A stretch of 64,000 nucleotides of DNA from Raillietiella orientalis (taxonomy: Eukaryota). A program made the translations under genes and the position numbers. Position 1 is the stretch's first letter; the number at the start of each line of letters is the position of its first letter. The notes below the pieces were generated by a model, which made no database searches, was not told the origin of the DNA, and saw only the letters and a program-made list of their open reading frames with translations. The stretch covers positions 3,348,001 to 3,412,000 of the forward strand of contig JAYWIR010000011.1 of assembly GCA_036172245.1 (NCBI GenBank). The letters are read 5' to 3'. Shown piece after piece: positions 25,001 to 62,489 of this stretch.

Positions 25001-25235
25001 TTGCGGCCTCCAACTTCTCGTGTCGCTTCGAATCTTTACCCACGCCGGAGGCTCCAGGTACTCCTCCTCCTCCAACATTATCACTGGGTCGATATCCACC
25101 TGAGCCGTTGTGGGGACTCCCAAACGGAGATTTGCCGAGTGCTCGCGGAGAGACAGACGTGCGATTCAGAAACGCTCGACGTCTCCAGATGAAGAGAGAC
25201 GGTCCAGAGCTTCGGACAATTCAGCTCCGTCTTCC
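22100..25235 (-). mobile_element. Decayed L1-type LINE, RT to 3' end
   Basis: 'AELSEALDRL' (~25225), 'RSWRP' (~25012), 'SQGFLGKR' (~24880), 'MGKADEV' (~24775), 'GGVRH/MSP' (~24500), 'PFAE' (~24340), 'SGTKI' (~24225), 'GHVLTC' (~22650). Confidence 0.75.
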
Positions 25236-25239
25236 TCTT

Positions 25240-25820
25240 TCCCGATCGGTCGTCCCGGAAAGAACCTTCGAAAGAAACTGCGAGCACGAAATCTGTTCAA
25301 GCAATGCGTTCACGGACGCTTCTTGCATTCTTTGTGGTGCCCGCGTCGGATAAGGAGGGCAAGCAAGCCGACGGGACGGAAGATCGGAAGAAGGTACTTT
25401 CGCCTTCCTCCCGGCTTCCTTGTCACCTCCTCCTCGCTCGCTACTGTTGCGTCGCCGTTGTCCAGCGTATCCGCTACTCACCGTCACTTCCGCTTCTCGC
25501 CCCTTTCAGCGGCAAATCCAAGAATTCCAGCGACCTTCCAGATGAATTTGAGGGTTACTTAGGCCACGGAAACCTCCTACGAATCATCAAACAACATCGG
25601 TCACGATTTCCTGCGACATGTCATATCCTCAAAGAAGATCACGTATGTTAGTATGCCTGATAAGAGTAAAGGCAGGATGCAGAATGTAAGAGAGTGGATT
25701 TGTTGACGTACAAGGATCAACGCAACGTGCGCAGCCGTTGAGGAGTGCGCACAAGACAACGCGGCAAACAGTGCGCTATTACCGGAAATTTCCTGACGAC
25801 CCCTGGTAAACTTCATTTAC
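25240..25820 (+). mobile_element. Decayed LINE RT N-terminal fragment inside the IR1 spacer
   Basis: 'DKEGKQAD' linker-like (~25350), 'GKSKNSSDLPDEF' (GKSPGxDGLPxEF-like, ~25510), 'TYK' (~25708). Confidence 0.55.
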
Positions 25821-25874
25821 AGCTCACAAGATGTTTTTTTTCTTCACATACATCTTAACCATGAACAAATTGGT

Positions 25875-26245
25875 TTGCTTCGGATGATGGAAATCCTTTT
25901 GGATTCTTCTGTTGTCGCTGATTTCCTTCCAGCCTTTTTTTTTTTTCGGTTTTTTTTTTTTTGGTTCGCTAAATACTGAAGAACCGTTCGCTTCCTTAGG
26001 GGGAGGGAGCTCAGAAAGCTCTTTAACGCTGTCCACGCCACCCGGAGATGCGTGCTTAACTCTTCAGATGAGGGGTAACTCTGGAAGGACATCCAATGAA
26101 ACCAGGGAGGCTCCGAAAATAGAGTGCGTTCCTCTTACTCTTGGGAGGGAAACCCAAAGAGAACCTCTTCCTTATTCTCTCTGGAAGGACCCCGAAGGGG
26201 ACACTCCTGATTTCTTCTTCAAAGGGAACCCGTAAAGGATCCGCC
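25875..26245 (-). mobile_element. LINE endonuclease-RT linker fragment, homologous to 62905-63245
   Basis: 'LRVAWTALKSFL...KKKNRKKK' (L1 W-x-x-x-K linker). Nucleotide blocks shared with the second copy include atttccttccagc, cgctgtccacgccaccc, ttcctcttactcttgggagg and aagggaacccg. Confidence 0.65.
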
Positions 26246-26248
26246 CCT

Positions 26249-27700
26249 GGAAGACGGAGCTGAATTGTCCGAAGCTCTGGACCGTCTCTCTTCATCTGGA
26301 GACGTCGAGCGTTTCTGAATCGCACGTCTGTCTCTCCGCGAGCACTCGGCAAATCTTCTCCGTTTGGGAGTCCCCACAACGGCTCAGGTGGATACCTATT
26401 AACTGATGATAGCGATGATTCTCATGGAGGCTTTGGTGTGCGAATGTGCAAGAGCACGAAGACGTCAGGTCACTGCCGGGCATTGCATGTTCCGGGAAGC
26501 TCAGCATGGTTTGTTCCTCCATGTTGCCACAAGAAAATTCACCGTACTGAAGAGCAAAGGAAGTAATTTATTAGTTTATTTGTCTTGGCGTCGCTGCATG
26601 GGAACACAGCGTGGTTGGTGCAAGGGACGCGAAGGTTTTCCATCGAGGTGTTTCTCAGAAATGACGAAGCAGAGGTTTTAAGAAACAATCAGTTTGCAGC
26701 AAGATGCTTGGCATGCTTTTGCAGGCAGTTCCCCTTTCCACTTCCAGCCTCCACCCATCCAGCTGCTTCCCGAAGCAGCCTACTGCCCTTTTCAGGCTCT
26801 CGATAAAGGTTCCGGGGTGCCAAAGTGGCAATCAGCGGTGGCTGCAGATGCACAGGCAAGCAGACAGCGGCGGTTCACCAAGGAAGAATTTCCAACCTCG
26901 GACCAGCGCTGGAGAAGCGGAGGAAGGAGCGATTCGGAAGAGGATGGCTCCCTGGAGCTCTCATGCCGAAGGAAAGGAAAGGAGCGACAAACTGCAACCG
27001 GAATTTCGGCAGCTTGCGGCCCGCAGCCCAGCGGCCCGAGAATATGGCGAATGCTCACCTTTTATTTTCGCCATGAAGTGCAACTTAGCCACTCGCGGTG
27101 CGTCTTTCGTTATTGGATGCACTCCGCAGATGATGCCCTCCTTTCCGTGTGGGGATGAAAATGGAAAGCAAGCCGATTTAATTGACAGAGAGAAGAAATT
27201 CGAACCTTGATAAACAACATGCCTGTCTTGAGTTCATCAAACGTCAGCCTCGTGAAACGGTTTGGTAATTGGGAAACACCCGATCTTTTTAAACCTCCCT
27301 AATTCTTTCCGCGCGGAAATAAGGCTGCATTATTCCTTCGTTCTAGAACAGGAGAGTGTTTCTTGTTCTCAGGAGAAAAGGGGAACGTTTCTTCCTTTTT
27401 TTTTTTTTTTTTTCTCTTTCTTCCTTTCCCCTCTGTTTTCCTCTCGAGAACAAATTTCAGCATCATTTATCCTAGCAACCGCAGGGGTTACGGGAGCTAG
27501 AAGGCAATTACTTCTAATCAGTTTCGGATTTGAGAGCTTATCGACCGCGAGCTGCGCGCTCATTTTTCTTCCGGTTGTTTGTTTACCCGCAGCCATTTTC
27601 CTGCTGGCACCGCAAGAAATCCAAATACGTTCAGACGCCTGCTGCTGCCAAACAGGATGCCACCACATGCGCGTTGTCACGAGCGGACGACCATCTCGGA
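26249..27700 (+). mobile_element. Decayed LINE RT fragment beginning at the right arm of IR1
   Basis: 'AELSEALDRL' (~26260), 'TQRGWCKGR' (~26605), 'TGISAACGPQPSGP' (~27000), 'HSADDALL' (~27122). Confidence 0.65.
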
Positions 27701-27864
27701 CCAGAAAACTCACGTGCCTTTCTCATTCGCGCGTGATGCAGGGATGACAGACGAAATGCAACGAGTCCGAAAAACGACGCGAGCCGCGGGAAGGGGGGGG
27801 GAGGGAGGTTCCTCACTTCCGCGATTCTTCCTCGCGCAGCGCGGGGCGTTGCGGGCCCTGCTGG

Positions 27865-27895
27865 ATGCGTGCGTGCGCGCGCGCGCGCGCGCGCG
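27865..27895. repeat. Alternating purine-pyrimidine tract with a pure (GC)n core
   Basis: atgcgtgcgt followed by an uninterrupted (gc)n run, read directly. Confidence 0.9.
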
Positions 27896-28099
27896 AGCAG
27901 CCAGCCCTACGCAGTCCTCGCAAGCGGCCTTTTTCGGGTTTTCCCGTTTTGAAAATCTCGTTCCGAGGAACAACGCGCCCCTGCCTGCCACAAAGGGAAC
28001 ACGATCGAGCACGCCCGTGGTCACAATGAGTATCTGAAAACTTAATAACCCATTCTTTCGGCCATTCGCCATCAGTCACGAGAGACGAAAGGATCGAAG

Positions 28100-28800
28100 C
28101 TTTCCGCATCCTCACAATGAGCGGAGTGATCTGTTTTCCCCCTGCGACGAGCCGATCTGAAAGGGGATTCCCTGCGATCCGGGAAGAGCACAACAATGGC
28201 CTCGGAGGAATGGGACGTTTGCAAGAACACAATGCGTAAACTGACAGGGAGCAGTCCGGACGGCCGGCAAGCCATCATCAACCCATGTCAGCATCGGCGT
28301 TCGCTTCGGATGCCGCGGAGCGCTTGCGCAGCCACACTCTGGAATTCCCGGATGCTCTACGAGGCGAGCGGATGAGGAAGGGATCAGCGGGGGAAAAGCT
28401 CCAGGCCCGAAAACGGCACGGCCGTGCTTGGATGGACGGCCACGGCGTGCGACAGCAGCCAGAGTGGCCCAGACGTGCACTGGCAATGCTCTCCAGGGAA
28501 ATAGCGGCCAGGTCAGAGGGGGTTTCCGATCGGATCCCAGGAGTTGCGGACGATCCCCTCGAAAGGGCATGCGCCAAATTTGAATCGCATCTTTCAGTGT
28601 GACCCGCGGCATGTCTCAATGGCTTGCCAGTCACTCTGGGGCGATTTTTGCAATCAAAAGTGCACACAGTAACCAAGCAGGATGAGAAAACCCACCGGAA
28701 CCCTAGGTCCCGTGGAAGTCTAAGAAAGCACAAAACTCTCGCAGGTCATCTGCTCGCGGAGCTCCGCGGTGCAGTCAGGGAAGAAGGCACACGCCACGAA
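28100..28800 (-). mobile_element. Decayed plant-type L1 ORF1 fragment
   Basis: 'WPLFPWRALPVHVWATLAAVARRGRP' (W..LP.H.W...L..IA...G pattern), followed by knuckle-like 'LPAVRTAPCQFTHCVLANVP'. Confidence 0.65.
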
Positions 28801-28849
28801 ACAAATGCGGAAATATAGAACACTGTGAGGGGAGGAGGGAAACATAGGA

Positions 28850-31800
28850 CACTCTTCCTTCAACCTTCCCAGAAAGGGAAATCTCCCTGCCCTGCTGAAT
28901 TAAAATGGTGGAGATTTAGGAGATGGTACTTCCCTGTCTTGCCGGTCTCGCTCCGCAACGTGCTACCGCCATGAGAGACTCCCGCGGCGGATCGCCGCAA
29001 GACCTCTGGGCGCAAGTCTTCCCCAAGTGCAGGAGGTCCTCCGCTGGAGGCGTCCGTTCTGGACGGAGGGCATTCTCCCGGTCCAGTAGAAGGTGCGGGG
29101 GAGATTCGATCTCTCCGCACCTGGAGCAGTGCTGAAGGACGTTCCTCCCTGTCGAGTGGTGCCGGAGAGCGGGAATAGCGTCTCCATGTGCTGTCCTCTG
29201 AGTGGGTGGCGCTTCCCGTGCCTTGCCGAGGGTGGGTACCGTGGAGACGAGTGCACCCGTTCCCGTGGAGACCAGCCTTCCTAGGAGTTTGCAGCCGTAG
29301 CGCGCCGGCAAGCAGCGCGACTTCTTGCGGACAAGGCGACGCGCCTCTCGCGGATCCGGCGAGCGCCCCACGTTTCTTAGCCTCGAGACTCGACGGTTCT
29401 CCCCCACGCTGAACGGTTCCGGTTCTCTTCTCTTCCGCGGAAATGCAGCTCCTCAGGAATCCCAGCTGCAGTTTTCACTTTGCCCGAATCTCTTCCCTTT
29501 TCCTTTTTAAGCACGACAGAGATAACTCCGAGAGCCGCCACACAGAAAGAACACCCACCCCTGTCTCGATTTCACCTGCAGGAAAATAGACTCGAGCAAC
29601 TTCTTCATCGTGTTTTGTCTTTCCTTGGGACCTTTGGGATTCAGGGAACGACGGGGCGATGCTAAGAGAGCTCAGCTTCCTGTAGCACCATGAAGGGCAT
29701 ATTTGAAAGGAGCTGACATGTCCCAGCATTCAGTTCTGTCATGAGGTCGTTTGAAACCAGAGACCAAGTGATAGTTTGTAAAGGAACTTCCCATTGAGAA
29801 CTCTCCCAGCCTCTCAAAGAATGGGATGAGGAGGAGATGGAAATGGTGGCTAACCGTCCTCACTAACCAGCCAAACTCCATCCTTAGATACGTAAAATTT
29901 TTCAAGGTGAATACATGCAACATGCTGAGGGCGAGAGATAGCCTGAAGACGGCAATCCTTGCTTCTAAACGCGGACATCCCATGCTCAAGTGGAATTTGA
30001 AGATGGTACCCAACGTAGGTAGCATCGACCATCCACCAGCGTTGTAGCGATGATGAAGAAAGGAAGAAGATCTGTCGCTGGATTCTGGACAAATAAAAGT
30101 GAAAGCCGAAAGAGACCGGACGGTCGAATCTAGAAGAAAAAAATTTTCAACTTTGTTCGTTTGAGATTTCTTGCTGCTCGGGGTACAGGCAATGGCTTAG
30201 GTAGATCTACGTGTTGCAGGTCATGAAACTTCGTCACCGAAGGCCAACTCCGAGAGTTGACGCTTTATAGAATACTCGACTGCACTTTGCACTGGAGACC
30301 TAGCAAGGGCGAATCTTTCCGGAGCCGAGGAATCCTCAACCACATGGTCCAGATTAAAGTAGTCCACTTGAAGGCATTTCGGTCATTTAGCACGTAGACT
30401 GCTAGCCGTGTCGATTGCCCGCTCCCGCTTCCCCAGAAAGATGAAGAGGAGTATACAATTCATCTGAAGCTTTGATAACTTCCTTGGGTCGTGAAATAGC
30501 GTCATCCGAAAATTGCAGTGGGGCTGCCAAAACCGGGAGCAAGACGCTCACTCGTTGTATGCTCAGTCTTCGTAGACACGATAGATAACCCCTGAGGCCA
30601 TAGGAAGTGTGGGAATGTTTAGCTCGCTTTCCGTGTGAGTTTCTGGTTTGTACGGATAGTCCATGCTGAACTCATTCGTGCGTTCCCTCCACACCCCAAG
30701 CTCTTTCAACAGGTTTGACTGCAGCGTCGTCTTGACTGCGTCGCTAATATGGGATCTTCAGAGAAACGTGGAGTCCCACACGTCTCATCCCTTCGCCAGT
30801 GAACATCGCAAGAGGGTTCACGCTTGTCTCCTTGAATTTACGGTACCTTCCCTGCTGCAGCACGCAACAACTAGGGTATTAAGCTGCCTCGTGACATCTT
30901 GGCCCGACACGTTTGCTCGGCAAGAGCTTTCGCAGCTTTCGACCCCAGTCTTATCCTTACGTGGGAGACTTTTGGACCACTGAGATGTGGCTGTTCCTCC
31001 CTTCGGACAGTTAGGCTGCAGAATCTCATTCCTTTGAAATGGACGAATCGCTTTGGGATCTAAGGTCGGAAAATCGCTCAGAATTGGATACAGGGATGAC
31101 ACAAGGAGTTATCTTTAACTTCTGAACCCTACTCTAAGTTATGAGAAATGCTTCGTCCCCCCTTGAAGAATACTGTACGAAGACCAGCGCTGGTCATCTG
31201 TGCATCCGTACAGATGGCATGAGAACGATCGTTAGGTAAGATGCATCTCTCGTGGCAAGAGAGAATCCCGAGACGTTAGTCTCGACTGGTATCCTGGCAC
31301 TTGTGCACTTCCCACAGATAAAACTTGCGTTATGCGTTCACACGGAAGCGCGCATTTGTGCCATGGCTGGCGTAAACCTTGAGCTAAGAAAAGAGCTTCT
31401 TATTGGTTGTCTCTGTGCTTCAAGTGTAGGACACCTGAAGCTCAATGACGAAGGATCAAAGCACCCCAACTGAACTTCTTGGAATGTTTCGAATGCCTTA
31501 AACAGTTCCATGTGTTCTTCACTGCATTCGTTCTTCAGGGATCATCTACGCCTACCGTTTGTTTACCTTTCACTTTATGCAGAAGAATCTGTGGCATAGG
31601 AAGGGAAACCTTGAATCTTTATGTAGTCGAGATTGCAGCTTTGCTTCTTGCAGAACAAAGCGCAGATACAGAGCTCTTTCTGTCCCCAAGTGTAGCATTG
31701 TCTTCTTTCTGTTTCTTGGTGATCCTTGGGTAGTTCTGACCAGCATCCCTGACGGTCTTTACTGCATTTCGTGCATTCATCTGGATGTTTAGCTCACACG

Positions 31801-33800: not shown

Positions 33801-33900
33801 GATCCCGAGATAGTGGCTCGTGTCCTCGAGAGCAAAAAAAGGCAGGCTCTCTGAACGCTCAGTAAAGCACGTTTTCTGTATTTTTTTTTTTTTTGTGGAG

Positions 33901-36650: not shown

Positions 36651-36985
36651 GCAGCCCTTAAATACAGTTCGTTAAAAATACACTGCGCAGCTGGATGCAG
36701 TGTTCTCTGTGACGAATTTCGGTGGTTTCGCATGCCCTCATCCCCGCTAATCGCCTAGCAATGAAATCGAGATTTCAGTCGGGAGTAATTCACAGGAACA
36801 AACCAGCTTGCCTCCAATCCGGGTCACAAAAATTCGTGCTGACCCTTCCCTCTGAACGTTGCTTCTTCTCTTGAAACTTTGACAAATGGCTAGCAAATAG
36901 CTTAGTAATCCCTAATTTTTCTTAAGTCAGTGTTGTTCTTCACGAGTTCGCTGTCTGTTTCTTTTGTCCGCGGGCCTAGGGAGCA

Positions 36986-37078
36986 AGCGGATAGCGAATC
37001 CCATTGTTGGCAGGCATCTATATATAGCTGCGGCATCTATATATAGATGTTTGCCAACAATGGGATTCGCTATCCGCT
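36986..37078 (+). repeat. Near-perfect hairpin: 42-bp stem, 9-nt loop
   Basis: agcggatagcgaatcccattgttggcaggcatctatatatag pairs with ctatatatagatgtttgccaacaatgggattcgctatccgct. The only deviations are two adjacent G:T pairs. Confidence 0.95.
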
Positions 37079-37351
37079 CTCCATATAGAGTGCAGGCCTA
37101 GGTCTAGGCTACCGGCGGAAGCGCGTTCCACTCTACCAGGTTCCTCCGGGCGGCCTGCCCCTATTTGGCAGGCGCTCTTGCTTGCATCGTCCTTCATGCA
37201 CTCGCCACCCTTTGCACGTGGACGCGGACGACGACGACGCGCAGCCATGAAGATAGATCCTTGACAGCAGGCGAAGATGCAAATGGAAGCTGCTGTCGCA
37301 TCATCAGTGGATTCATTCTTGAGCAGCCTGCGACTCGTTATTGGGCATATC
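37018..37351 (-). CDS. Gene C candidate terminal exon; frame unresolved
   Basis: Acceptor ttttacttactttccttaag|. One frame stays open to a TAG at 37018 inside the hairpin, another stops after DMPNNESQAAQE. A plus-strand exon reading is also possible. Confidence 0.25.
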
Positions 37352-42149: not shown

Positions 42150-43500
42150 AGTGTTAGGGATCATCGGGTGCTGGAGGGCGTCCTCTGCATTTTTTCCAGG
42201 ATGCCCACAAGTTCCACCAGGGTATGTCCTAGGTAGGGCCATCTTGCTGCTGTCCGCAGGAAGCGCAGGGCGAAGCAGATGGCGTCCCTGTCGTGCCGTC
42301 TTCCTCTCGCGTAGCTGCAGGCCGCCACAATCCCACGTAGGCAGCAAAGAGTTGCTAGGGATGCGGCTAAAGGGCATCGAGCACGAAGAGGCTCTTCGTC
42401 ACGTCCCTGGGATTGTGAGTCGGTGCACCAAGAGCCGTTGCGAAACGCAATCACAGGGGACGGAAGGCAACACAGTCTGCAAGCAATACAGGAGGGATTC
42501 CCGTTTCTCGCATCTGCAACAGTTGGGCCCCACAGCTCCCCGGGACCAGTGAGACCGGCAGGAGTTGCACGGGACACCTCAGTGCAACAGCAGGATCGCC
42601 GACTTCTGCCACCTCAGATGGAGGGCCCGGTTGTTCTTCAGCGCTGGGAGTCACTCAAGGTCTTCCTGCGGGATTCCCAGCAGTTCACCCCAGCGCAATG
42701 GCCCCTTCGGTGGGGCACTTGGAGTCGCAGAGTCCGTGAGCTGGCCCGTGGTCCACCTAATCCCTTCTTCCTTCCAAGGATTTCACAATTGACCTCCCAT
42801 TTGGCCGGCTGGTTACTGCCCAAGTGCTCCCTGAGGGAGCGCAATGCCACGGCTAGGGGGTTCTTTCCGCCCAAGCACACGTCGTGTGCTGCACACATCC
42901 AGTGGAGTGCCCTGCCGGACGTCCCCGGCACCAGGTCGCGCCTCACCTCGAAGTTTCTAGAGCGGAAGGGCGAAGGCAGCATCCGGGGTAAGGGGAGAGG
43001 GAGAAAGGAGAGATCGCCGGATACTCTCAAGTCCCCTGAGCACTGGCGCCGCCATTCTGCCGGCTCCGCGCGAGTGGAGCTACCCGGGACATCCCGAGAG
43101 ACAGCCCCCAAGCCCGCGCAACCAGCACTCCAGGATGATACCTCGGGATCGTAGACTGGACGCACCTCGGCCTGGTTTCACGTGAGCGTCGGAGGATTTT
43201 CAGCCACCGCTGCGCGACCTCCACCCAGCATCGCAGCGCCCCCGGACAAATTTCGGATCGTCTCGATCGCTTTCGGCGTCATAAAAACGGAATTCGGCTT
43301 CTCTTCTTTCGGTCCCGTTTCCAGTGATCATGCATCTCCCGAAGGAGCTGTGCTTTCGGCAGAAACAGCAACACCCACGCTTCCCAATCGCATTGGCCAG
43401 AGAGTAGACCTCGAGCCATAGGGGATCTAGGCAAAGCCCACGTGAAGACGACGGGCTCACAATCCCTCGTGAAGTTTCCCCTGGAGTTCTAGGCTGTTCT
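42150..43500 (+). mobile_element. Decayed LINE, linker to early RT
   Basis: 'LQRWESLKVFLR' (~42640), 'AAPPDKFRIVSIAFGVIKTEF' (KAPGPDGF-like, ~43235). Confidence 0.6.
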
Positions 43501-43549: not shown

Positions 43550-44900
43550 GGTGAATCGTGTGGAGGACAGAGGTGCCCCTTCGAGCACTCTCCCCTCTGC
43601 ATCCAGGCACGACCGGCCTTGGCAGCCTTGCTCGAGAGACTCGTCATCGGGGTCTGGAGGTCTGCCAGCTCATACGGCCCGGGGGGAGGAGGGTGAGTGG
43701 TGGCGCCGCCCTCCGCCGCGATCCCGGAAGAGCCAAGGCAAGGAGGGGCCGGAGGAAGGGTCCCTCTCTGCGTCCCCACCAAGGAAGCATCCGATCGGGC
43801 ACTGGGATCGGGAGGAGACCCGCCGCCCGACTCCCGGCGGACCAGAAGGAGACGAGGCACACGGGAAGGGCAACGGCGCTTCAGGGAACACACGTCGGGT
43901 CGGTCGCAGCCCGCGACGAAGGAGCGAGAGACGACGCAAGCCCAAAGGTACGACGGTCCGCCGCCGACTATGGAGAGGGCGCGGAGAGACGGCCCCGTTC
44001 GTCGGGAACTCTGGAGATGGGTGGGAAGCGATCGGCCGGTTGCGGTGATGCTGGAACGATTTTCTCCCGCCTCTTCCCATCCCTGGTCTTTTGCTCCCGG
44101 CTGACGCGGCAAGATACGTGAGCAAGCCGCTTCCCTTCTGTTTCCCGACGTCACGGACTTTGCCCGGTGAGAGTTTTCTGGGTCTCCTCCCCATCTCCAC
44201 CCCTCCCCCTCCTTCGCTTTTGCGGGTGAAGCGTCCAGGATCGCTGCTACGAGATGGCAGTGCAAGCGAAGCCACCAGACGCACCCGACCGGACCCTTCC
44301 GTTGCTGAGGACGAAGAGGACCTTTCCGAGGAGGAGGTAAGGTGGGCATCCCACCCTCCCCGATGCTCCAGGATCGAGGGAGGAGAGGAGAAGAGGGATA
44401 AAGAGGGCAGCTGGGGTTCCGTTGGTCAATCCTCGCAGAGAGAGACTCGCGGACCAGGATGGCACTGTGCAGGCGCTTCGCGGTTTATCCACGGGATGAG
44501 GCGTGGGTCGAGTGCAAGAATAGGGGGAAGGACGTTCAGACAAGCATCCCGGAAAGGATTCCTTTGTAAAGGGAGGAGGCGCAGCTTCTGCTGCGGTGGG
44601 ACAGCTGAAGCTGCTCCGGGCGGCTTCCGTTCCCAAGCGCCATCTGCTTCTTCCTACCGTTGATCTGCAGGATCCTGCGACCCCGGGAGGCGGGTCCTCT
44701 CCTTTGCCCCCCTTCCTATGCCCGTCCGGGTGCTCTCGTGGAGGGGGCACAGAGAACGTGGATTTTCCACCGGCTTTTGCGCGTGCGAAGGAGCGCAGAG
44801 CACGGGGCGGAGCGTAGGTCGCCGGGCGAGCCAGTGCAGGGGAGAGCGTGGATGGTGTCCAGGGACGGGACGCAGACGAGAGGTCGCGGGGGGAAGTCCA
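43550..44900 (+). mobile_element. Decayed LINE, linker and RT; carries the left arm of IR2
   Basis: 'LWRGRGETAPF' (~43970), 'LSEEEVRWA../DAPG' (~44325-44372), 'RKGFLCKGR' (~44555), 'TVDLQ' (~44660). Confidence 0.6.
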
Positions 44901-45569
44901 TGAGGATGATGCGCTCGCGAGGGAGGAGGAGATGGAGCGGTCCATCCCGCTGGCGCCGGGGAGAGGAACGGTGGCGACAGCGAGGAGCTCTGATAGGGAA
45001 GGAACTGGAGGGAGGTCGAAAGGTCGAAACTGCACGAAGATGAGGGGGGGAGGTCGCTCTGGTGGAGTGGAGTCGACTCCCGGGATGGAGAAAGGTGCTC
45101 GTCGGCGGACTTAGGGCTGAAGGGTGCTGGACCGTCTCCTCCCACTCCGCCGGCCCCGCGGTCCCATGACGACAGGGCCGTTGGGACGCCCTCAGGTAGG
45201 GAAAAGCGATGGTCCCTACAGTCGGTCGTCTTCGTGAGGATCCAGGAAGGAACCACGAGCGGTTCTCGTCTGACTGGACCGCCCTGGTCTTCTGCAAGGA
45301 GAACGCCGTTGGCAAAATCCGCATTCCGACGTGCTGCGGGATTGCCCGCTCCTTGGAGAAGCGGGAGAAGGGGAGGTGGAGAACGCCTCGCCGTCCACCA
45401 CCTCCGGTGCCCTCGGGAGAGGAGAGGTGGTGGATGCGACCTCGCCTCGATCTGCGAGGATGGACCAACGGAACCCCAGCTGCCCTCTTTATCCCTCTTC
45501 TCCTCTCCTCCTTCAATCCTGGAGCATCGAGGAGGGCGGGATGCCCCTCTTACCTCCTCCTCGGAAAGG
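44321..45569. repeat. Inverted repeat IR2: arms 44321-44439 and 45451-45569, spacer 1011 bp
   Basis: Manual alignment: 119 bp, 7 substitutions, no gaps. Duplicated peptide LSEEEVR.AS.PPRCSRIEGGEEKRDKEGSWGSVG in the ORF track. Confidence 0.95.
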
Positions 45570-47109: not shown

Positions 47110-47300
47110 TCCTCTTCCCCCCTCCCTCGTTTTTCTGGGACATATCATCTCCCGTTCTCCAGTTCCTCCTCCTCCTCCCTTCTTCCTCCTCCTCTTCCCC
47201 CTTCCTCCTCCTTTTCCTTCCTTCCTCCGTTTCCTCCTCCTTTTCTTTTCTTCCATCTCCCTTCCTCCTCCTCCTCCTCTCTTCCTTCTCCCCTTTTTCC
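47110..47300 (+). repeat. (TCC/TTC)n polypyrimidine low-complexity tract
   Basis: Read directly. Confidence 0.85.
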
Positions 47301-50179: not shown

Positions 50180-52050
50180 TGTCTATGCCCTAAACCCCCC
50201 GGCAGCCCTGAGAACGCACGTGTAGCACATGGATAAAGTCTGTGTGCTGCGCACGAGTATGTGCTTTGCTTTCTTCGTCGATTTGAGTGACACGTTTCCA
50301 GCAGGAACTGACTGCGATGACATCCGATCCTGGATCAAAGGGTCGAGTGATGGGACAGCCGAATATTTTGGAAGGGAAACATGTCTTGGTGGAAATAAGC
50401 ATCTCTTGAGGCAGAGTGCATCTATTGTGGACGTGAATACGAAGACAGCACTGTCAGAGTCCAAAGAGCAGCTGACTCCCCGGTGCAAAGTTTTCACACG
50501 TCACTTGAGACAAGGCCTGCAAGTTTGTCGGCAATGGTGGAGTTTTCGTTTTCCCCCTTTCCAGTAAGCATTTACTCCTTCAAACTTCGAAGTGGAGAAG
50601 AAACTAGAAAATTCCCTGAACCGAAGACGGAAGGTAACTTTCAAGTTTTCCTTCTTTCTTTCCTTCTCGTCCTCTTCAAAAGAACTCTGCTGCTGCATGT
50701 ATTCAGATGAAACTAAATAGAGAAACGAAAGAGCGCTGAGACCGGGATAGGCAAGGAAAGAAGGCGGGGATTTTTTGTTGAAAAAGTTACGCGCAAGTAT
50801 TTCCATCCGGAAGGCAGAACTCAGACCATCTGAATGGCGTGGAATCACCTTCGTAAGACCAGAGCACGTAATGGTCAAGATTTTCCAAATGATGAATAAT
50901 AGATGAAAGAAAAGGGAAAGCAGATAGGCGGGTCACCAAGAGAAGCATTCTCATGGAAAATGGATCCAGTCCTGAGATAAGCGTCTGCAGTATCTGCGCT
51001 AAAAAGTCGTAGTACCTCGTTTTTCCAGCAGGAGAAGAGATGATCGGCGCTGGAAGTCCCTAAACAAAATGCTGAAAGAGCAACCATCGGAACGAAGATG
51101 TGTTACTGCTCTCCGATAGATCGAATCTGCTGGAAACTGAAAGACCGGTTGCTTTCAGTACTCTCAGGACAGATGGGTTTGCATCCGTAGGCGGCGCCCA
51201 CCTTTGAGAATGCGACCTCTCTGCAGGAACTAAAGGGAACGGTCTGCTTTTCGACTTGTGCTTCTCTCTCGAGGAAGCTACAGTACCTGCACTACCTGTA
51301 TCCATCTCTGAAGTCCCTCTGTGTTGATGCAAAGAGACATTTGATTTGCCCAAAGTTAAAAGATCCTTTCAAGCCTTTTGAGGAACAGCCATTCGGGAAG
51401 CATCATTTGCATCTTTCCACTGCATTAAAGCCTGTTGTCCTTCAATCTCCTCTTATTTTCATGCTATCAGTTGATGAACAGAAAGACCTGATGCCGATGG
51501 CAGCAGCTAGGCCGTTAGAAGCGCACGATTGTAACTTGACACTGTTGAGGACTTTCTGTTTAAATTTGGACTTTCCAGCATGGATGGATTCTGGAAACTG
51601 CAAATCCCTTGACTGGAAAATCAGGTCTGGTGGCTGCCTCCCAGCAAGTGACTACCAAATAAGCGGGTAGCGAGTGCTCCCCACAGCTAGGAAGCTGTGA
51701 TTTCGTTCTGGTGGAATGCTTTTAGAACTGGCAAAAGTGCCCTTGCATGGCAGCTCTCTCCCCTCTGACGTGACGTCAGCAGGGTTCTCAGCAAGGCGCC
51801 ATAACAGCGCTGCATATCATGCCAGCTGCGTTCGACGAGAGTGCTGTCAGCTGCCAACAAGTGCTTGCTTCTTTGCCGAAGAACTGGCACAGAACCTCTT
51901 TTTCAGAAGATCGGCTCTTCTCCTTGAGGACCGCCTGACATTTGTTCTGGCGAGTTATGTACTTTTCTGACCTTTCCAGCCCATGAGTTAGGAGGGGGGG
52001 CGATCCTCTTGCTCCTTGATAAGGGGGCAGCTAGCAAACCCCTCCTGTGC
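50180..52050 (-). mobile_element. Decayed LINE, linker to RT, intergenic
   Basis: 'PRHSDGLSSAF' (~50835), 'YWKGGKRKLHHCR' (~50560), 'VSLKSTKKA' (~50285). Confidence 0.6.
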
Positions 52051-52205
52051 TACTTGAAAGTGAGCAAACTGCGCGAGCGGCTACCACACAGGAACATAAG
52101 GAAGTCTTTTTTTTTCCACCGTAGTCGCAGCCCTCAGCTCCTCCGCGAAATCACCATCCGCCTACTGGACCGTCACCTTCAGGACGTTCCTTTTGATGGC
52201 GACCT

Positions 52206-52425
52206 TCAGAGCACTTTGATATTCATGAAACAACTGGAGATCAGCTCCACGGTTGTCGAAGAATACTGCTCCTTGCTGAGGACCCTGAGGAAGTCCAGTA
52301 TGTAGTCCATCTCGAGGATGAGGACGGGCGGTTTCTTGGACGACAGGGACTCGACGCTCTCCTTCAGCGCCCCGGAGTGGGACTGGACAAAGTTGGGCTT
52401 CCTCAGCCACGTGTACTCGAGCATC
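52206..52425 (-). CDS. Gene D terminal coding exon (MLEYTWLRKPNFVQSHSGALKESVESLSSKKPPVLILEMDYILDFLRVLSKEQYSSTTVELISSCFMNIKVL-stop); family not recognised
   Basis: Acceptor ctacag|G, very strong GC3 codon bias, globular-looking composition, TGA at 52206. Phase matches the 57667-57713 exon (AA+G = Lys). Confidence 0.8.
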
Positions 52426-52599
52426 CTGTAGATGCCCAGCATCGAGGACAGGGGTGGCAGCAGGAAACAGCATCCGAAAAGGCTCGAAAGATGTGGCTCC
52501 AACCCGAAATCTGCAGACTGAGCAATCACTCGATCGCAGTCCAAAATCCTGTCCACCTGTCCACTGAGCGTTTTTTTTCTCTTGGAGCCCATCCAGCTG

Positions 52600-55500
52600 T
52601 GTCCTCCCTTTGGACGAAGCGCCGGCACACACATGGACTCCGAAGGGGCTCAGCAGCAGGAAGAACCAAGGCGGAGGAACGCTGAATCAGAAGACTCCAC
52701 TTTCCTAGAGTTTCCCGTTCTCCCACTAAGGATGGAGTTCGTTCATCCTATCTGCGTGGAGGATTCTAAGTGCTCATACTGTGTGCATATTCTTGCATAT
52801 TTTCGCGATTCATGCAAGCATGCGCTGGAGAACAAGAACGCACAGACGTATGCCGACTACTACTCGCATCCCCTGTTCTCTCCCACGACGGAGGAGGTAC
52901 TCTAGGAATGGGACTAGGAATGGGTTCAAATCGTCTCCACGCCCACCCAAATGCCCCCCCATTCCTCGCCCAAGAAAACTCTAATTCATTAGGAGCTTTT
53001 GTTGAGTTTGCTGGGATAGAGCTGCCTATGGTGTCTGCTGTGCTGGGCTTGTGCGCAGGCGCTCTGCATTTCGCGATGCTCCCGAAGGAAGATGCATCCC
53101 AAAGAGTAGTCCCACACTCACCGGGTCCACTTGCGCTCCTCAATCTCCGAACGCCCAAAGGCTTTGCCTTAGAGGCACCTGGAGATGGAAGTTGATTCCT
53201 TCTTGCCTCCTGGAAACGGAACCACGTGATTTGGAAGCGAGAGTCAGACCGAAACTCGCTGCTCCCTTCCATTTTGTCCTTTCCACCCCATAGTTGTACC
53301 GTCGCCAGCACGGCAAGTCATCGGCAAGGGAACGGACCTTATTCCTTTGGCGCCTCCCACATTCGGCACTCCAGCACAGCTTCCACATACACACACACAC
53401 ACACACACACCTCCTAACGCAGATTTGGGAGCGATGACTTCCGAGGGGATGCAGGAAGGTCTCGACACCGATTCCACTTCGAAAGAGAACAGCCAGAGCT
53501 GCTTGTGCTGTGTGCTTTGAACTACTCCGCTTGCCACTGCTGCAGGCATCGCCGAGAGGTGAGATCAGATCCATTTTCCCGGTTCCCTTGGATCCGCAAT
53601 TTGCAGTTTCCACCATGCTATCTGGCACTGACAGAAGAGAGACCGCAGCGCAGGAAGAAGGAAGGAAACTCGTGCTCGGGAGAACGGAAGGATCTCTCCT
53701 TCACGCGTCTGCAACCCTTGCCCATTCTTCCAATCGGCCCTTGACGCTCTCTGAGGCCTGCGAAGATTCTTCTGAGGGTGAGACAACCTCCCTGCAGAGG
53801 GTGCTGAGTGCAAACGAAGTCGTGAGGATGAGAGAAGGAATCCAGTACCCGCCGCGGAGTAGTGGGGAGAGAGGGAGGGGACCGCAGAGGCGAGGTTCGG
53901 CAAGCTGCAGAATGAGAAACCGCAGACGTCCACGTGGTCCGGGGTTTTCCCTGGAAAGGAGCTCCTAAAGAGAAGCGCGGCTCTTTCGACTCTTTCGAAC
54001 TCGCTCGTGGCCCGAGAGGGATTCCCTGACCTGAAATTTCTGACCCGACACCGAGATGCTCTCGGTGTCGGGTCAGTAATTCAAAGAACCGCCAGAGAAT
54101 CTGGACGTAGCTCTACCGTAAGTTTTCCAGCTTCCGGAACAGAATTCTTTGCGGTGTTCCCTGTTTCTCCTGTTTGCATGACTGGGGACGCGGGTGCCTC
54201 TCTGATTGGCCGTGGGAAGAGGGGATGTGGCTGCTGGCGCTCCTGCACGCTGGTTTCCCGGGAGATGAGAGTAAGTGGATCGAAGCAGGGCGGTTTCTGC
54301 GTTCTTCGGAGTGCGGCGGACCTCGGATGATGCAACCGAAGCTCTCGGCACCCGCATTTCGTGCACAACTGGTAATTCCACAATGGCTTCACTTGTGGTC
54401 CCACCCCCAGGGCGGTGCCTGGCGAGAGAAAAGCGAAAACAAACTTCGCGGTTTCTAAGGAGACGGAAAGGCGTGCGAACAAGAGAACCACAGGACAAAG
54501 TCAGCGTGGAAGGCACGCGGGATGGGGCCTTAACGATCCATGAGCTGCAGACAGTCCAGTGAAAGTGAAAGGGTAGCATTGTCATCCATGACTCCTGAAA
54601 CAGGGACACTTGCTGGCATTAAGAGGGAATAACCAGAGTTGCTGTGGCAAGGGCAGCTGCTGGCGCCTCTTCTAAAACTTTTGTTCCTCTTCCAAGGCAG
54701 CAGCTATGGTTGATCGCGATAATGAAGATCGGGGAAAGCAGCGAAGAAAAATCCGTCTCTTCTCGACAGACTCAAAGGTAGCTGCGATTCCTTCTTTTCC
54801 ACTCATGATCTCCTCCCTTCTTTTACCCCGGTTTGGCCTCTAAAGTCCAGAGTGCCCGTCCCGTCAGCTCTCCTGAGATAAACAGTCCAATTTCCCCACC
54901 AAGAAATTCTTCTAGCAAACCGGAAGCAGCTGTGACTTCACTCGCTGAGTATCTCGTAGGTCAGTTCTCTCTCCTGATGTACCCACCCGGTTTCTCTATT
55001 CCCAAGCGATGTGTAGGCGCCACTTGCTGAAAGAAGGTCTCTGAGGGAAACCATCTTCAATCTTCGTCGTCTTAGAAACAAAAAGCACCAAGACCTTTTG
55101 TTCCTTTGAGATCTCAAGATCCACCGGGATTTCGGAGACCGTGCAAATAGGTGCAAAATTGCATTTCTTGCAAGGCACTGAAGCTCAGTTAGGAATGAAC
55201 CTTCTTTGCTTCAGTTTCTGGAACCACTTCCTTCTTCAACGCTGTTGGGTTCCGCAACCACTTTCCCCATTACCCTTTGCCGGAGCCCAGGGAATTTTTC
55301 GGACCTGGAAAGGGGTCTACTCCTTAGTTCCCTTCCTAAAAATGCCTACGCCCAGCTGCAGCAGCTTACACGAATCGAGAAGGAACCCGGCGACTGAAGA
55401 CAGTGGCTGACATTCCTGCTTTGGATACAAGACACTTCAGGTGGGAGTTGCTCTCTGAACTGAGAAGATTTGCTTCTTCTTCTCTGTTGCAAGGAGTCTT

Positions 55501-55600
55501 CTGAGCAGCGAGTGTCATCATGGAAGAATCAACCCGTCTACTCTTTTGGAAATCCCTCCTCTAGCTGCTGAATCAACTCTTCGGTTGCTACTTCTATCCC
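52600..55600 (+). mobile_element. Decayed L1-type LINE, ORF1 plus endonuclease, in the last intron of gene D
   Basis: Knuckle-like 'PHSCTVASTASHRQGNGP' (~53290), ORF2-start-like 'CMTGDAG' and 'LVSREMR' (~54175-54270). Right boundary uncertain. Confidence 0.5.
53389..53410 (+). repeat. (AC)11 microsatellite
   Basis: Read directly. Confidence 0.9.
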
Positions 55601-55899
55601 TTCGGTTCATTAGAGAAATAGCAATTCTCTTCTCGGGCAGAAGCACCAGAAGGGATTGTGATGTGCACCCGGTCACGCCGAGATGTTTACTTAAAAAGTA
55701 AACTACAAATAAGGAAAATAGTGTTCCCTACATACAAGAAATGCCCCCCCCCCAAAAAAATAAATAAATAAATAAACAAATAAGTTCATTGGGGCTGACC
55801 CCCTGCACGCAAGCCGGCTTCGAAGAAAGTAGAGAACGAAAGGAGGGGACAGTAAATTAATAAAAAAAAGAAGGAAGGGTAGGCAAAGAGGTGTTTGGT

Positions 55900-57250: not shown

Positions 57251-57666
57251 CGCGCCTTGCCAATGACAGATGGCTCCAGCGTCTGCCAGCATCCATTTGT
57301 CTGGTTCAATTAAGGGGCTGAAATATTTTAAAAAATCCATTTCGCTGGCGTATGAAACACTTGGTATGCGTGGTTGATACAAAAAAAATAACGCGCGAAA
57401 TCAAGGATGGCAGGCTGCACGAGTTTGCTGCTCGCGTTTTCTCAACAGAATATCCGGCAGGAAAAAATTTCAGATCAAAAGAGGAGGAGAAAGAGGAAGA
57501 ACAAGAGGCTGGGCCACTCCCGTCTTAGAAAGAGGCAGCAGCCGTGATTTTCGGATCGTCCTATCTCTGATCGCTGCTTCGTGATAGGGAAGCCATTTGT
57601 TTTTGTGTGTGTTTCTGTCTCGCCGCCATCTCTCAAACAACCGATGTTTGGCGCACCATAAATTAC

Positions 57667-57713
57667 TTGACGCACCGCGCCACCAGCGTCTTCGATAGAA
57701 ATCCGTATGCACC
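57667..57713 (-). CDS. Gene D penultimate exon (GAYGFLSKTLVARCV-K)
   Basis: gccag| acceptor, AA|gtaatt donor. Phase 0 in and phase 2 out both match the neighbouring exons. Confidence 0.7.
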
Positions 57714-57803
57714 CTGGCGCACCACATGCGCTCAATCTGCTGTGGGCAGCCGGCGTTAATTAGCGGCAGGATCCCCCCTGTTTCTCTTAGCAACGACAGT
57801 CAC

Positions 57804-57918
57804 CGAGGCCGCCGTAATGTGGATGCTGACGTTGTTGACTTTTCCGATGAACCATGTTGCTATTGGCAGCGCTCGTTGCCGGCGTATATTTTGGCATCCT
57901 CTTACGGAGTCCTGCTTC
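57804..57918 (-). CDS. Gene D internal exon (KQDSVRGCQNIRRQRALPIATWFIGKVNNVSIHITAAS)
   Basis: Pyrimidine tract plus ctccag|, TCG|gtgact donor. The following 90-nt intron (57714-57803) contains a branch-like gctaat. Confidence 0.65.
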
Positions 57919-57999
57919 CTGGAGGCGATACGCGCAGACGGGAAGGGAGGCGAGCAGTAGCAGACCTTCGTCGTCGGGGAAGTCGCCTTCCTGGAGAGT

Positions 58000-59000
58000 C
58001 CCAGGGAAGGTTTCGTGCGGCGAACCTAGAGGAAAATTCCAGGGTCCGGGCTATCGAAGCAGCGAGCAGCCTCTCTCGAGCCGTGCTGCAGAGGCCATCT
58101 CTCTTTGCGTCTCTCTTTGTCACACTCAGCGACTCTCCAGGCATCTCACGTCCTCCGGGGATAGCGTCTTCTCAGCACCCCACGCCCACTCGCAAGTCGA
58201 GACGCTCCCCGCACGCTGCGGAAACTGCCGCCGCATCACTGCTGGCGACCGCGACCGCGGGGCGTTTCCGGCCTTCCCGAGCCAAAGGGAACTTGATGGG
58301 GACTGCGGGCTTCCTGAACCTCCTGCCAAGCGAGCCCTCCCTCAAGCGGGGGCATGCGGAGGGGGCACCGTTCCGGAGGCTCCCGTCCACCGAGCCACCT
58401 GAGAAGCGGTGTGGCCGACGCCGAGCAGCCATGAGTTCACTTGTGACGGGAGTCGACTGCCTGCTTAAAGCCACAGAGGAGGAAGAATCCCTTTGTCTGG
58501 GAGGGCGGGTATCCTCTAGCATGCAGCTGCTTCTCGAGGAGGAATGCTGCAGCGACCACCTCTTGGTCCGCTCTCTACTTACGGGGCCGGAAGAGCTGCA
58601 CTGGGGAGAAAGAGGGAGGAGACCCTGTGGATGAAGTTTGAAGAGGACATGGAGGAAAGGGGAAGTCGACGATCTCTGGAGAACCTGGAGAAAAACCACG
58701 GACCCGCTCGGGACGACTGACTTTTCGGGAGCAGGAAGAAGGTCAACGAAAGTCTCGTGGGTTGGCTCACTGCCGCCGGTGCGAGAGAGGCGCTGCGATG
58801 GCAACGATCTGTGGTGCCTATGCGACATCGCGACGGCACGCCCCATGATGGCGTCTCGTTTTCACGGCAGCCGCCTCGGCGAGGACTGCTGAAAGAAGGC
58901 TCACCCGCAAGAAGTCTACAGGGAGGTCGCCGCCATCCACAGCTACTTTTAGGAACGTGCTGCATCAGAGACCCCCGTCCCTATCCTTCCGTTCTGAACT
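58000..59000 (+). mobile_element. Decayed LINE endonuclease
   Basis: 'LCLGGR' (~58495), 'VDDLWRTW' (DxWR, ~58668), 'SRRHAP' (SDHxP-like, ~58830). Confidence 0.6.
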
Positions 59001-59073
59001 TCCCCGAAAGTTGGCCTGGGTACCGGAGGTCGTTCCCATTGGACTTCTTTTTGTTGTTATCCTGTATCTATAC

Positions 59074-59143
59074 TCAGGAAGGGGGAGGGGGGCATTTAGA
59101 GGACTCCTCTGATTTGTCGTTTCTTTATTTTCAAACAAGCGTC
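59074..59143 (-). CDS. Gene D candidate exon (RLFENKETTNQRSPLNAPLPLPE)
   Basis: cattccag| acceptor, weak GA|gtatag donor, phase 2 out fits 57918; lies in the gap between two LINEs. Confidence 0.3.
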
Positions 59144-59149
59144 CTGGAA

Positions 59150-61950
59150 TGACAAGCCGGCACGAGAGAAGACGGGAGCATCCAGTGACGTGTCCAGGCG
59201 ACCTTCCATACGACCTATATCTGCCGGAGAGAGAATCGCAGGATGGCGCCAGAACAAGTGCTACCGCCATCTCATCGCGGCGAAATGGCCCGAAGCCGAC
59301 GAACAGCAACGACCTGGGGGTTTCGGACGGTCTTCACGACGGATGGCTCCAAGATAAGCGACGTGAATCCCCGCGGGGAAGACTCCGCGCAACGTCCAGG
59401 CGCCATCTGCATCCTCATGGGAGAGGGTCGGCTTCCCGGACGAGCTTTCCCGCCAGCGTCCGTCCAACGAAAAAACCCCGCACGGAGACTGTTCCCTTCC
59501 CGAGAACAGACTGCGTGCGTGCGTGTAGGGAGAGCGGCACGCGCTTCGCAGCCAGCCGGGAGTCGCCGCGAGGGACGAGCGAAGCTCCCGCTCGCCTCTA
59601 GAGGGTGCGACTTTCGGACCTCGGGGGCACACGGAGAGATGCAGGTCCACCTCGGATGGGAAAGCCCGGAGGCGCGAGTGCTCGCCGCTTGCCCGCGAAA
59701 AGATCCTCCGGCGGTGTCCATCTCCGCCGCTGGACCTACAAGTCCTTCCCCCCTTCCGGGAAACGCCGACTCGAGATTTCACCATCGCAGCTCCCGCTCG
59801 CATGGAGGGGACTCGCGTGCGTCCAGTGGATCGCAGGACTCGGCATCAGCGTTTCACACGTGGCCTCGCACCCCGCCCCACGCGGACGACCGGGAGTGCA
59901 CCGCGCGCGCGCATCCACGAGGAGAGACGGGGCTGCGCTCACGCACGCTGCTGAGCGGAGGCATTTTGCGGACAGCAAGCGTGAGCCTGCGGGGTGACCC
60001 TGCCACGCGGACGTCCACGTGGACCCGCGACTTGAGAAACTCGCCGCGATCCAGAACGCCGTCGGATCTCTGAGGCATGTGCGCGGGTTCTTTTCCACGC
60101 GTCCACCGCACGGAGACACACCAGAGGCACTCCAGAGGCACACCAGACACACGGCTGACACATCGCTCGCAAGAAGCATCCTCCACATACTCACTGCGCG
60201 CGCGAGACAAACGCGGGAGAGGTGCGAGAGAGAAGCTGTCAAACCGCGCGCGCGCAGCGGCCTCCGGCGGAGATCCCGGGAGGAGAAGAGAGCATTCCCG
60301 CCCGCTCCCTCGCTGCATCCGTCCCCTGGCGGCCCTGAGCTTTCCTGCCGGCAACCCTCGTCTTCCGTGCCGGGGAAGAAGTGCCACCTCTTGCTCCTTC
60401 TGCGCTCCGTCCGGAAGAACAGGAGGGCGGGGGATTCGCCCATCTAGGAGAGGGAGATCCTGCCAGACGGAGGGGGGAAAAAGACGGAGGAGGAGAAGGC
60501 GGAAACCCCGCGCTTTCGCGCCCCCCTCCTCCTGGACAGTTCCAGACGGCGCAGCGTGCGCTGCTCTCAGATCCGAAACGTCACGAACAATTACCGCCGT
60601 AATGAAAGCTTCAGGTTTCGTCTGCCGCCACCAGAGGCCGCGGACACCAGCCGGTTCTCCCCCCCCCTCTCCTCCCCGGCCATGATTCACGCGTGCCTGC
60701 ACGCACCCGGTCTCCAGGCAGCAAAGTTCAAGTGCGAATTCTGCGCGGTTCCGAAGGTCTTCCCGCGCGGCGAGGCGGCGGCGGCGGCGGGCGGGCGGGC
60801 GGCGGCGGCGGCAAGGGCCAGAGCTCGAGAATGGGAGGAGGGGGTACAGAGGCGTCCCGGGAGCTCACGCGGACCCCAAGAAGACCTTGCAGGAAGGGCC
60901 TCCCACCCGCGTCCGAGGTCTCTCGGACGCGCTCCGGAATCCAGCATCACGCTGCTCCTCTCTGCCACAGTCGCGGGGAACGGGAGTCGAGATGACCAAA
61001 GGGACGGTGGTCGAGAGCCTGCACCACCAACGCCAGTGAGGGGGTGAAGGCGCAACAGTTGTCCCGCGGTGATGAGGTGTGGTCCGAGTAGAGACCGGGC
61101 CGGGGATGGAAGGGACGCCAAACGGGCGAACGGCAGCTGTGGAGGCGCCGTGGTATCCTGGAGCGTCCGCAACCCCCGAGCACCCGCGCGCAGAAACAGC
61201 GATCTTTCTTTTGCTTTCCTCCTTTCCGCCCCCCATCGAGCTGGGGGGAGGAGGAAGGGGTCCCAGGCTTTTTCGCGGAGCGAGAAGCTCAGCCGAGGGC
61301 TCGACCAGAGCGATGGTGACCGACGAGAAGAACAGGTCAGCTCTTTGGAGCAGATGAGACCCCTCTTTGGACCGCAGGACCTCGAGGCATCTGCTGCACC
61401 TCTCGACGAGAAGACCCAGCGGCACGGGGGCTGGCGGAGGGAGAGCAGGGCTGTGCGCTTCCCGCACTCGCCGTAAGATGGTGCGTAGTTCGCGAAGCCC
61501 TCGATTCGCATGGCCGAATGCGGGCGGGTGTTGCAGGCAGCCGTATCCAGGGTGCGTGGGGAGGAAAGGTGGGGGTGGAAGGAAGGGCCCTGTGCCGAGC
61601 TACTGCAGATGAACTCCCAATCTCCATGGTGCCAGCTGTTGCTGCAGAAGATGGTTCCTTCCTCCAGGACTGACGCGCCGTGGAATCGACTCCCGCGGGC
61701 GCAAACCGTCGCGCCGCAGGCTTGGTCAGCGGGGAGGGCGTCGATCGCCTCGACCCGTTTCTTCCTCGGTGTGGACAGTGGCAGCCCTGCTGCGAAGGCA
61801 AGCAAAGGAAGAAGAGGAAAAACTTCGACTTTGCGGCCTCTCCCCCCCCCCCCTCCCCGCCTTTTTCCGGAGCAGGGGAAGCGACAGCAGCAGCGACGTT
61901 CCGAAAAGTTCGCAGAGGAAGCCATGTGGAACTTCATCTCCTCGTGGAGC
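59150..61950 (-). mobile_element. Decayed L1-type LINE, RT to 3' end; carries the left arm of IR3
   Basis: 'TEEE/VEAIDALPADQACG' (~61770-61715), 'CNTRPHS' (~61525), 'QARVNHG' (SGxxVNxxK-like, ~60690), zf-like 'RCAESSPRGFTSLIL' (~59385). Confidence 0.65.
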
Positions 61951-62489
61951 AGGAAGTGAGAGGGGAAGGGATCCTCCTCCCCTGTGATCTGTCTCGTCGC
62001 AGCGGCGCGGTTGTTGTGGCAACGCGTCGCTGTTCTCTCTCCCCTCCCACCGGTCCGAGCAACCGAGTCGTGGCGTCAAGAGAGGTCCCCTTCTTCCCCG
62101 CTTGCCGGGAGATGAAAGCCGAGAGAGCCCTCCTTTTTTCCTTCTCTCGCCTTCGCAGCAGGGCTGCCACTGTCCACACCGAGGAAGAACCGGGTCGAGG
62201 CGATCGACGCCCTCTCCGCTGACCAAGCCTGCGGCGCGACGGTTTGCGCCCGCGGGAGTCGATTCCACGGCGCGTCAGTCCTGGAGGAAGGAACCATCTT
62301 CTGCAGCAACAGCTGGCACCATGGAGATTGGGAGTTCATCTGCAGTAGCTCGGCACAGGGCCCTTCCTTCCACCCCCACCTTTCCTCCCCACGCACCCTG
62401 GATACGGCTGCCTGCAACACCCGCCCGCATTCGGCAGGGCGGCTGGCTATGCGAACTGCGTACCATCTTACGGCGAGTGCAGGAAACGC
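61455..62489. repeat. Inverted repeat IR3: core arms 61513-61799 and 62149-62435, looser extension to 61455/62489, spacer 349 bp
   Basis: Manual alignment: 287-bp core with 2 mismatches. Mirrored ORFs 61680..62222(+) and 61726..62268(-) begin with the same peptide. Confidence 0.98.

Follow-up and report, generated by a model that had tools for sequence, protein, structure and literature searches.

Three unrelated inverted repeats in 64 kb of Raillietiella orientalis DNA as candidate local inverted duplications, one with a conversion-like identical core

Arm-to-arm gene conversion operates in plastid inverted repeats and reportedly also in the palindromes of the human Y chromosome, as described by Rozen and colleagues in 2003. 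Inverted arms are likewise found in non-autonomous DNA transposons with long terminal inverted repeats (TIRs), such as Mutator-like and foldback elements, and inverted pairs of Alu or L1 elements within introns form double-stranded RNA (dsRNA). Plant proto-microRNA (proto-miRNA) genes are said to have been born by inverted duplication, a proposal of Allen and colleagues from 2004. Furthermore, template switching in replication is described as yielding reverse-complement copies that form perfect stems and as repairing the pairing of existing stems (Monttinen & Loytynoja 2022, PMC8794818), while other reports present it as a cause of mutation clusters (Loytynoja & Goldman 2017, PMC5453318) or, in yeast, as homogenising the arms of inverted repeats (PMC8604942). 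Finally, hairpin-RNA (hpRNA) loci yielding endogenous small interfering RNAs (endo-siRNAs) are reported from Drosophila (PMC10317233, PMC10292708). Here we analyse three inverted repeats (IR1, IR2, and IR3) in a stretch of 64,000 nucleotides of Raillietiella orientalis (Eukaryota; assembly GCA_036172245.1, contig JAYWIR010000011.1, positions 3,348,001 to 3,412,000 of the forward strand), hereafter the window, and compare them with these systems. A first-pass annotation had regarded each repeat as a patch made identical between two decayed, opposite-strand long interspersed nuclear elements (LINEs).

The repeats were called from an inverted-repeat scan of the entire window, a blastn self-comparison, and base-by-base alignment of the arms. 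Exactly three pairs emerged from the scan, and the same three are the top blastn self-matches:

25093-25235, no strand: left arm of IR1, a blastn self-match of 143/146 to 26394-26249, with sharp inner and outer ends
25236-26248, 1013 nt: spacer of IR1, non-palindromic, with no Pfam match above noise
26249-26394, no strand: right arm of IR1, the reverse complement of 25093-25235
44321-44439, no strand: left arm of IR2, 119 nt, 94.1% identical to 45569-45451, with sharp ends
45451-45569, no strand: right arm of IR2, separated from the left by a spacer of 1011 nt (44440-45450)
61455-61818, no strand: left arm of IR3, composed of an outer 39 nt, a 19-nt island, a 287-nt core, and an inner 19 nt
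62131-62489, no strand: right arm of IR3, with its core at 62149-62435, separated from the left by a spacer of 312 nt (61819-62130)

The arms of IR1 share 143 identical bases without a single substitution and differ by one 3-nt indel at 25128 (249 bits), whereas those of IR2 agree at 112 of 119 positions, the seven substitutions being five transitions and two transversions (184 bits). IR3 aligns over 364 columns at 94% (554 bits), and its 287-nt core (61513-61799) carries two substitutions. By comparison, the best minus-strand self-match among 20 shuffles preserving local composition reached 42.8 bits, so that all three repeats are real and far beyond chance. Positions and identity counts thus agree with those first given. 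No further copy of any arm rises above shuffled controls anywhere in the window, which makes the three pairs mutually unrelated, again as first proposed, and comparison within the window found neither a common terminal motif nor any sequence shared among them. The whole units measure 1302, 1249, and 1035 nt, respectively. The spacers of IR1 and IR2 are nearly equal in length (1013 versus 1011 nt) despite their unrelated sequence.

The three pairs are also of different ages. Between-arm substitutions amount to 0/143 in the core of IR1, 7/119 in IR2, and 2/287 in the core of IR3, and the divergence of IR2 differs from that of either core (Fisher p ~0.003 each). Such unequal divergence implies separate events or separate histories, which bears out the earlier idea that the repeats did not arise together.

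Each pair ends abruptly. Similarity between one arm and the reverse complement of the other is at least 94%, and at the arm ends it falls to background over a few bases; the two copies lie 312-1013 nt apart. When the 800 nt outside the arms and the inner halves of the spacers were compared with the reverse complement of the partner, local-alignment scores were 9-16, as against shuffle maxima of 14-18. With no homology past the arms, the repeats are discrete blocks and not identical patches inside longer diverged copies. A palindromic spacer was considered for IR3, where blastn under relaxed settings matched the unit over its full length to the reverse complement of itself at 78%, and was rejected, as the spacer part of this alignment is background and gives no signal relative to shuffles.

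Within IR3, identity is uneven. Its outer margin of 39 nt holds four substitutions and is followed, at the outer edge of the core, by a 19-nt non-homologous island (61494-61512) that includes a 4-nt indel; on the other side of the core, the inner margin has five differences in 19 nt. The core (2/287) is accordingly far less diverged than the outer margin (4/39, Fisher p=0.002) or both margins together (9/58, p=3e-6). A near-identical core bounded by heterology is what would be expected if the centre had been copied from arm to arm, with the tract ending where homology was already interrupted. IR3 therefore looks as though it was secondarily homogenised, by conversion or template switching between its arms, with an older short inverted repeat as the probable substrate and not a pair of LINEs. 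IR1 repeats this layout in miniature: going inward, 10 nt matching at 8/10 precede a 7-nt island and then the 143 identical nucleotides, which weakly suggests that it was re-homogenised in the same way. The proposal that the patches became identical late is hence retained for IR3, where core and margin differ, and abandoned with respect to the substrate, which would be a repeat of 160-360 nt and not the LINE pair originally envisaged.

We consider it about an even bet that the repeats arose independently of one another, as three local inverted duplications in DNA that is non-coding and repeat-bearing, and that homogenisation of the arms followed in IR3 and perhaps in IR1. According to this model, each repeat would have begun as a segment of 120-360 bp that was duplicated in inverted orientation at a distance of 0.3-1.0 kb. 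Most probably, replication or repair would have gone wrong, with the growing strand changing to the opposite-strand template nearby and then returning. Subsequently, the arms would exchange sequence by gene conversion or repeated template switching; in IR3, and possibly in IR1, this exchange may have made the core uniform again, as far as the small patches in which homology no longer existed. Several observations point in this direction: each arm pair is a unique two-copy sequence in 64 kb whose homology ends abruptly, no target-site duplication flanks IR1 or IR3, and the excess of transitions over transversions (5:2 in IR2 and 11:6 in IR3) indicates real mutation and not read error. The repeats with their sharp borders, their different ages, the uneven identity inside IR3, and the lack of any coding or LINE signal are shown here, whereas how the repeats arose, that conversion took place, and that no function need be invoked are our inferences.

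A number of points weigh against local duplication. The near-equal spacers of IR1 and IR2, together with the similar sizes of all three units (1302, 1249, and 1035 nt), are unexpected if segments were duplicated locally at random, and would accord with either a transposon family or a mechanism that favours a certain distance. The largest template-switch pattern mentioned in the available text of PMC8794818 is 59 bp, as against arms of 119-364 nt here. Furthermore, the boundaries used in testing the sub-regions of IR3 and the IR1 margin were set after the alignment had been seen. Finally, the model is drawn from the sequence of a single genome, in which the ancestral state, the identity of the copied arm, and the conversion are seen at best indirectly.

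The window holds other repeats and hairpins besides the three pairs:

25885-26237 (plus strand) and 62905-63241: repeat A, ~340 bp, the two copies ~70% identical
42519-42839 and 63895-63581 (inverted): repeat B, the two copies ~70% identical
36977-37085, 109 nt: near-perfect palindrome, whose arms (~50 nt each) enclose a short centre that contains CATCTATATATAG twice
54035-54081, 47 nt: hairpin, its 3-nt loop closed by a perfect stem of 18 bp, CTGACCCGACACCGAGA / TCTCGGTGTCGGGTCAG

Repeats A and B are both ~320-350 bp long, occur in two copies each with discrete ends and non-homologous flanks, and are unrelated to the arms. The first copy of repeat A lies within the spacer of IR1 and ends 11 nt short of its right arm; this repeat also contains an internal T-run and small internal hairpins. 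Since the arms are 94-100% identical as opposed to ~70% for repeats A and B, the arm pairs must be either much younger or kept alike. We considered whether A and B are halves of one element or an old inverted pair, and rejected this, as just one of six comparisons marginally exceeded its shuffles (second copy of A against second copy of B, 16 versus a maximum of 12) and the flanks are non-homologous. A metagenome scan with an 18-nt block common to both copies of repeat A returned 118 loci, yet none of the 118 matched the window by blastn at E up to 1e-3, and these 18-nt matches are therefore due to chance.

The palindrome at 36977-37085, which has GGCCTAGG-like palindromic words in both of its flanks, and the hairpin at 54035-54081 indicate that this DNA is prone to inverted copies. 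Hairpins or inverted repeats stand at ~25.7, 37.0, 44.9, 54.1, and 62.0 kb, that is, every 8-11 kb in the right 40 kb, and are too few for the spacing to be tested; the first 25 kb of the window hold none of those found. Local duplication leaves this roughly even spacing along 25-62 kb unexplained. In addition, a 38-nt direct repeat (92%), which is not of low complexity, flanks IR3 at 60731-60767 (690 nt away on the left) and 62594-62631 (105 nt away on the right).

With respect to composition, the window is free of N and gaps, has a GC content of 0.51-0.65, and shows an observed/expected ratio of 0.42 for TpA and of 0.87 for CpG, the latter being not depleted. DNA so poor in stop codons leaves frames open on both strands, and short peptide look-alikes are to be expected. 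The window accordingly contains 586 stop-to-stop frames of at least 70 aa, 160 of them of at least 150 aa, and every one of the six frames stays open over the IR3 arm. Translations of the arm regions abound in R, S, P, G, and A and are unlike proteins. For the Pfam scan we took 196 frames of at least 70 aa within ~3 kb of the repeats and 184 frames of at least 110 aa elsewhere, 380 in total; no recognisable gene was found among them, nor any Rfam family in the window. The possibility that the arms are fragments of coding exons was dismissed, given a weak period-3 signal over 61301-61801 (3.4-4.5 versus a window maximum of 14), translations of the biased composition just described, and no protein relatives.

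These data bear directly on the LINE reading, which takes each repeat for a patch that became identical in two ancient LINE copies on opposite strands, always at the start of the reverse transcriptase (RT) domain. The peptides that had suggested it (AELSEALDRL in IR1, LSEEEVRWA/LSEEEVRGA in IR2, and EAIDALP/EAIDALS in IR3) do exist in the arm translations, and very old LINE relics can evade profile searches, ancient and highly diverged LINEs being reported in one protist genome (PMC4337577, in the part available). However, the peptides do not constitute an RT landmark. The motif KxPGxDG is absent from the six-frame translation of the window, where PGxDG occurs once (7084, minus strand), far from the arms; the proposed pattern E-x-x-A-[IL]-x-x-L has five matches in the same translation, none of them in an arm; and the IR3 strings 'TEEE' and 'EAIDAL', read as one motif, sit in two different reading frames of the same DNA. 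The 380 frames gave no RT, endonuclease (Exo_endo_phos), L1 ORF1 (Transposase_22), or other Pfam family above noise, with seven sub-threshold rows in five frames (E 0.025-0.089) all far under the curated cut-offs. For decayed relics we read 18 frames of 500 codons, stops as X, three frames per arm and in the direction of the quoted peptides (outward in IR1 and IR3, inward in IR2), and these yielded no RT in Pfam at E up to 1, leaving two noise rows, Imm49 (E 0.11) and CAF1-p150_N (E 0.35). The longest frame over any arm (462 aa; 60690-62075, minus strand), which crosses the left arm of IR3, had no phmmer match at E up to 0.001 among 1.84 billion representative proteins. The RT relics said to continue on both partners beyond the arms did not appear in the Pfam searches of either set of frames, and homology itself ends at the arm borders. 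With six open frames over the IR3 arm and a TpA ratio of 0.42, look-alike peptides come cheaply, and the apparent common RT landmark is an effect of translating stop-poor, GC-rich non-coding DNA. The LINE model is therefore already largely refuted, and we grant it hardly any credence.

The remaining alternatives differ in how much of the architecture they would explain. The units might be non-autonomous cut-and-paste DNA transposons of 1.0-1.3 kb with long TIRs, Mutator-like or foldback-like and belonging to three different families, as the arms, sharply bordered on the outside, lie exactly at the ends of similar-sized units (1302, 1249, and 1035 nt), the window also contains the dispersed repeats A and B, and an 8-nt direct repeat, TGCTGAGG, is present near both ends of IR2 (44303 and 45575). 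According to the accessible part of PMC4337577, there is at least one protist genome, GC-balanced and long in its non-coding stretches, in which degraded CACTA- and Mutator-like elements predominate, with no tie to this window; the same source describes Sarcocystis neurona as having long introns, ancient LINEs, and ~28%-diverged DNA elements lacking a transposase, a landscape that is comparable and nothing further. We nevertheless regard transposons as unlikely. Neither IR3 nor IR1, whose arms are free of substitutions, has a direct repeat of at least 6 nt at its borders, and in IR2 the 8-mer stands 10 and 5 nt away from the arms. The three pairs have no terminal motif or sequence in common, no third copy of an arm exists within 64 kb, and neither open reading frames (ORFs) nor read-through frames hold a transposase remnant in Pfam. 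That the ORF over IR3 is without a relative in 1.84 billion proteins is weak evidence against a high-copy element. Still less probable, in our view, is that the units are hairpin-RNA genes of the endo-siRNA or proto-miRNA kind, whose stems are kept paired by selection and feed RNA interference (RNAi). If transcribed, each unit would fold into a long dsRNA hairpin with a near-perfect stem; the core unit of IR3 taken as RNA (61513-62435, 923 nt) is predicted to form one continuous stem of ~300 bp with a minimum free energy of -822.6 kcal/mol (z = -47 versus 20 shuffles). Arms of hundreds of nucleotides around a loop resemble Drosophila hpRNA loci as these are portrayed in PMC10317233 and PMC10292708, and selection could also be what keeps the cores of IR1 and IR3 so highly identical. 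Against this, the window has no Rfam match, conversion alone accounts for identical cores, and the IR2 transitions show no wobble preference, since by hand count G:U pairs would result in two of five cases on the plus-strand RNA and in three of five on the minus-strand RNA, which gives no sign of selection for pairing. A broader version, namely a regularly spaced class of hairpin loci in the long non-coding stretches of this organism, repeatedly born, kept perfectly paired by conversion or selection, and either supplying dsRNA to genome defence or acting as structural landmarks in long introns or replication units, appears to us very doubtful. Lastly, inverted chimeras are a known product of whole-genome amplification, and the repeats could in principle be assembly or library artefacts, arising from such chimeras or from fold-back reads and absent from the organism. 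The zero substitutions between the IR1 arms would agree with this, and from the sequence of IR1 taken alone a recent event and an artefact are indistinguishable. We nonetheless judge an artefact highly improbable for the set, because in IR2 and IR3 there are indels and also substitutions, with transitions in excess, the IR3 margins are diverged around the core where an artefact would have produced uniformly identical arms, and the assembly is uninterrupted by N or gaps here.

Some further features of the window lie apart from the repeats. Its strongest period-3 signal outside microsatellites is at 52000-53200, where the frame 52209-52649 (minus strand) has the best codon-position GC pattern (0.50/0.41/0.75); this frame may be a real exon, and it has no Pfam match and no relative among longer proteins. 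The simple-sequence tracts are as follows:

8836-8934: (ACC)33, read as a long His run in one open frame
1121-1155: (TGGGG)7
47163-47300 and 7475-7554: long pyrimidine tracts (TCC/CCCTC type)

Stripped of the LINE reading, the repeats offer a small, clean case of young inverted duplication, and in one of them heterology bounds an identical core that looks like a product of conversion. For now, the significance of this is slight. If, however, this architecture were frequent genome-wide or yielded small RNAs, it would bear on the birth of hairpin-RNA genes in a protist-like genome.

How do these units relate to the systems introduced above? Intronic pairs of inverted retroelements underlie the LINE model, inasmuch as opposite-strand copies of one element pair with each other as RNA; in contrast, no recognisable retroelement lies in or beside any arm here, and the three pairs share no sequence, unlike copies of one family. 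Non-autonomous long-TIR transposons are alike in forming units of ~1-1.3 kb bounded by inverted arms of 0.1-0.4 kb within repeat-rich non-coding DNA, and differ in that IR1 and IR3 lack a target-site duplication, the termini have nothing in common, and the window holds neither extra copies nor a trace of a transposase. Drosophila hpRNA and plant proto-miRNA loci share with the present units arms of hundreds of bases with a loop, folding into long dsRNA; these loci are, however, defined by transcription, Dicer-dependent small RNAs, and homology to target genes, whereas our units are known from sequence alone and contain no recognisable target-like coding sequence in their arms. Genomic palindromes are alike in that their arms are near-identical while the surroundings diverge, a condition which the IR3 core fits (2/287 versus 4/39 in the margin). 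Their arms nevertheless extend over kilobases to megabases instead of a few hundred bases, and the conversion that we infer here is drawn from one heterogeneous alignment. Template-switch mutations, as characterised in the available text of Monttinen & Loytynoja (2022, PMC8794818), come as events of tens of bases lying close together, and differ in scale from arms of 119-364 nt set 0.3-1.0 kb apart. They nonetheless combine both traits of our repeats, namely a reverse-complement copy made in one step with sharp switch points, which matches the sharp borders seen here, and existing arms that can later be made identical again, which matches the identical core of IR3.

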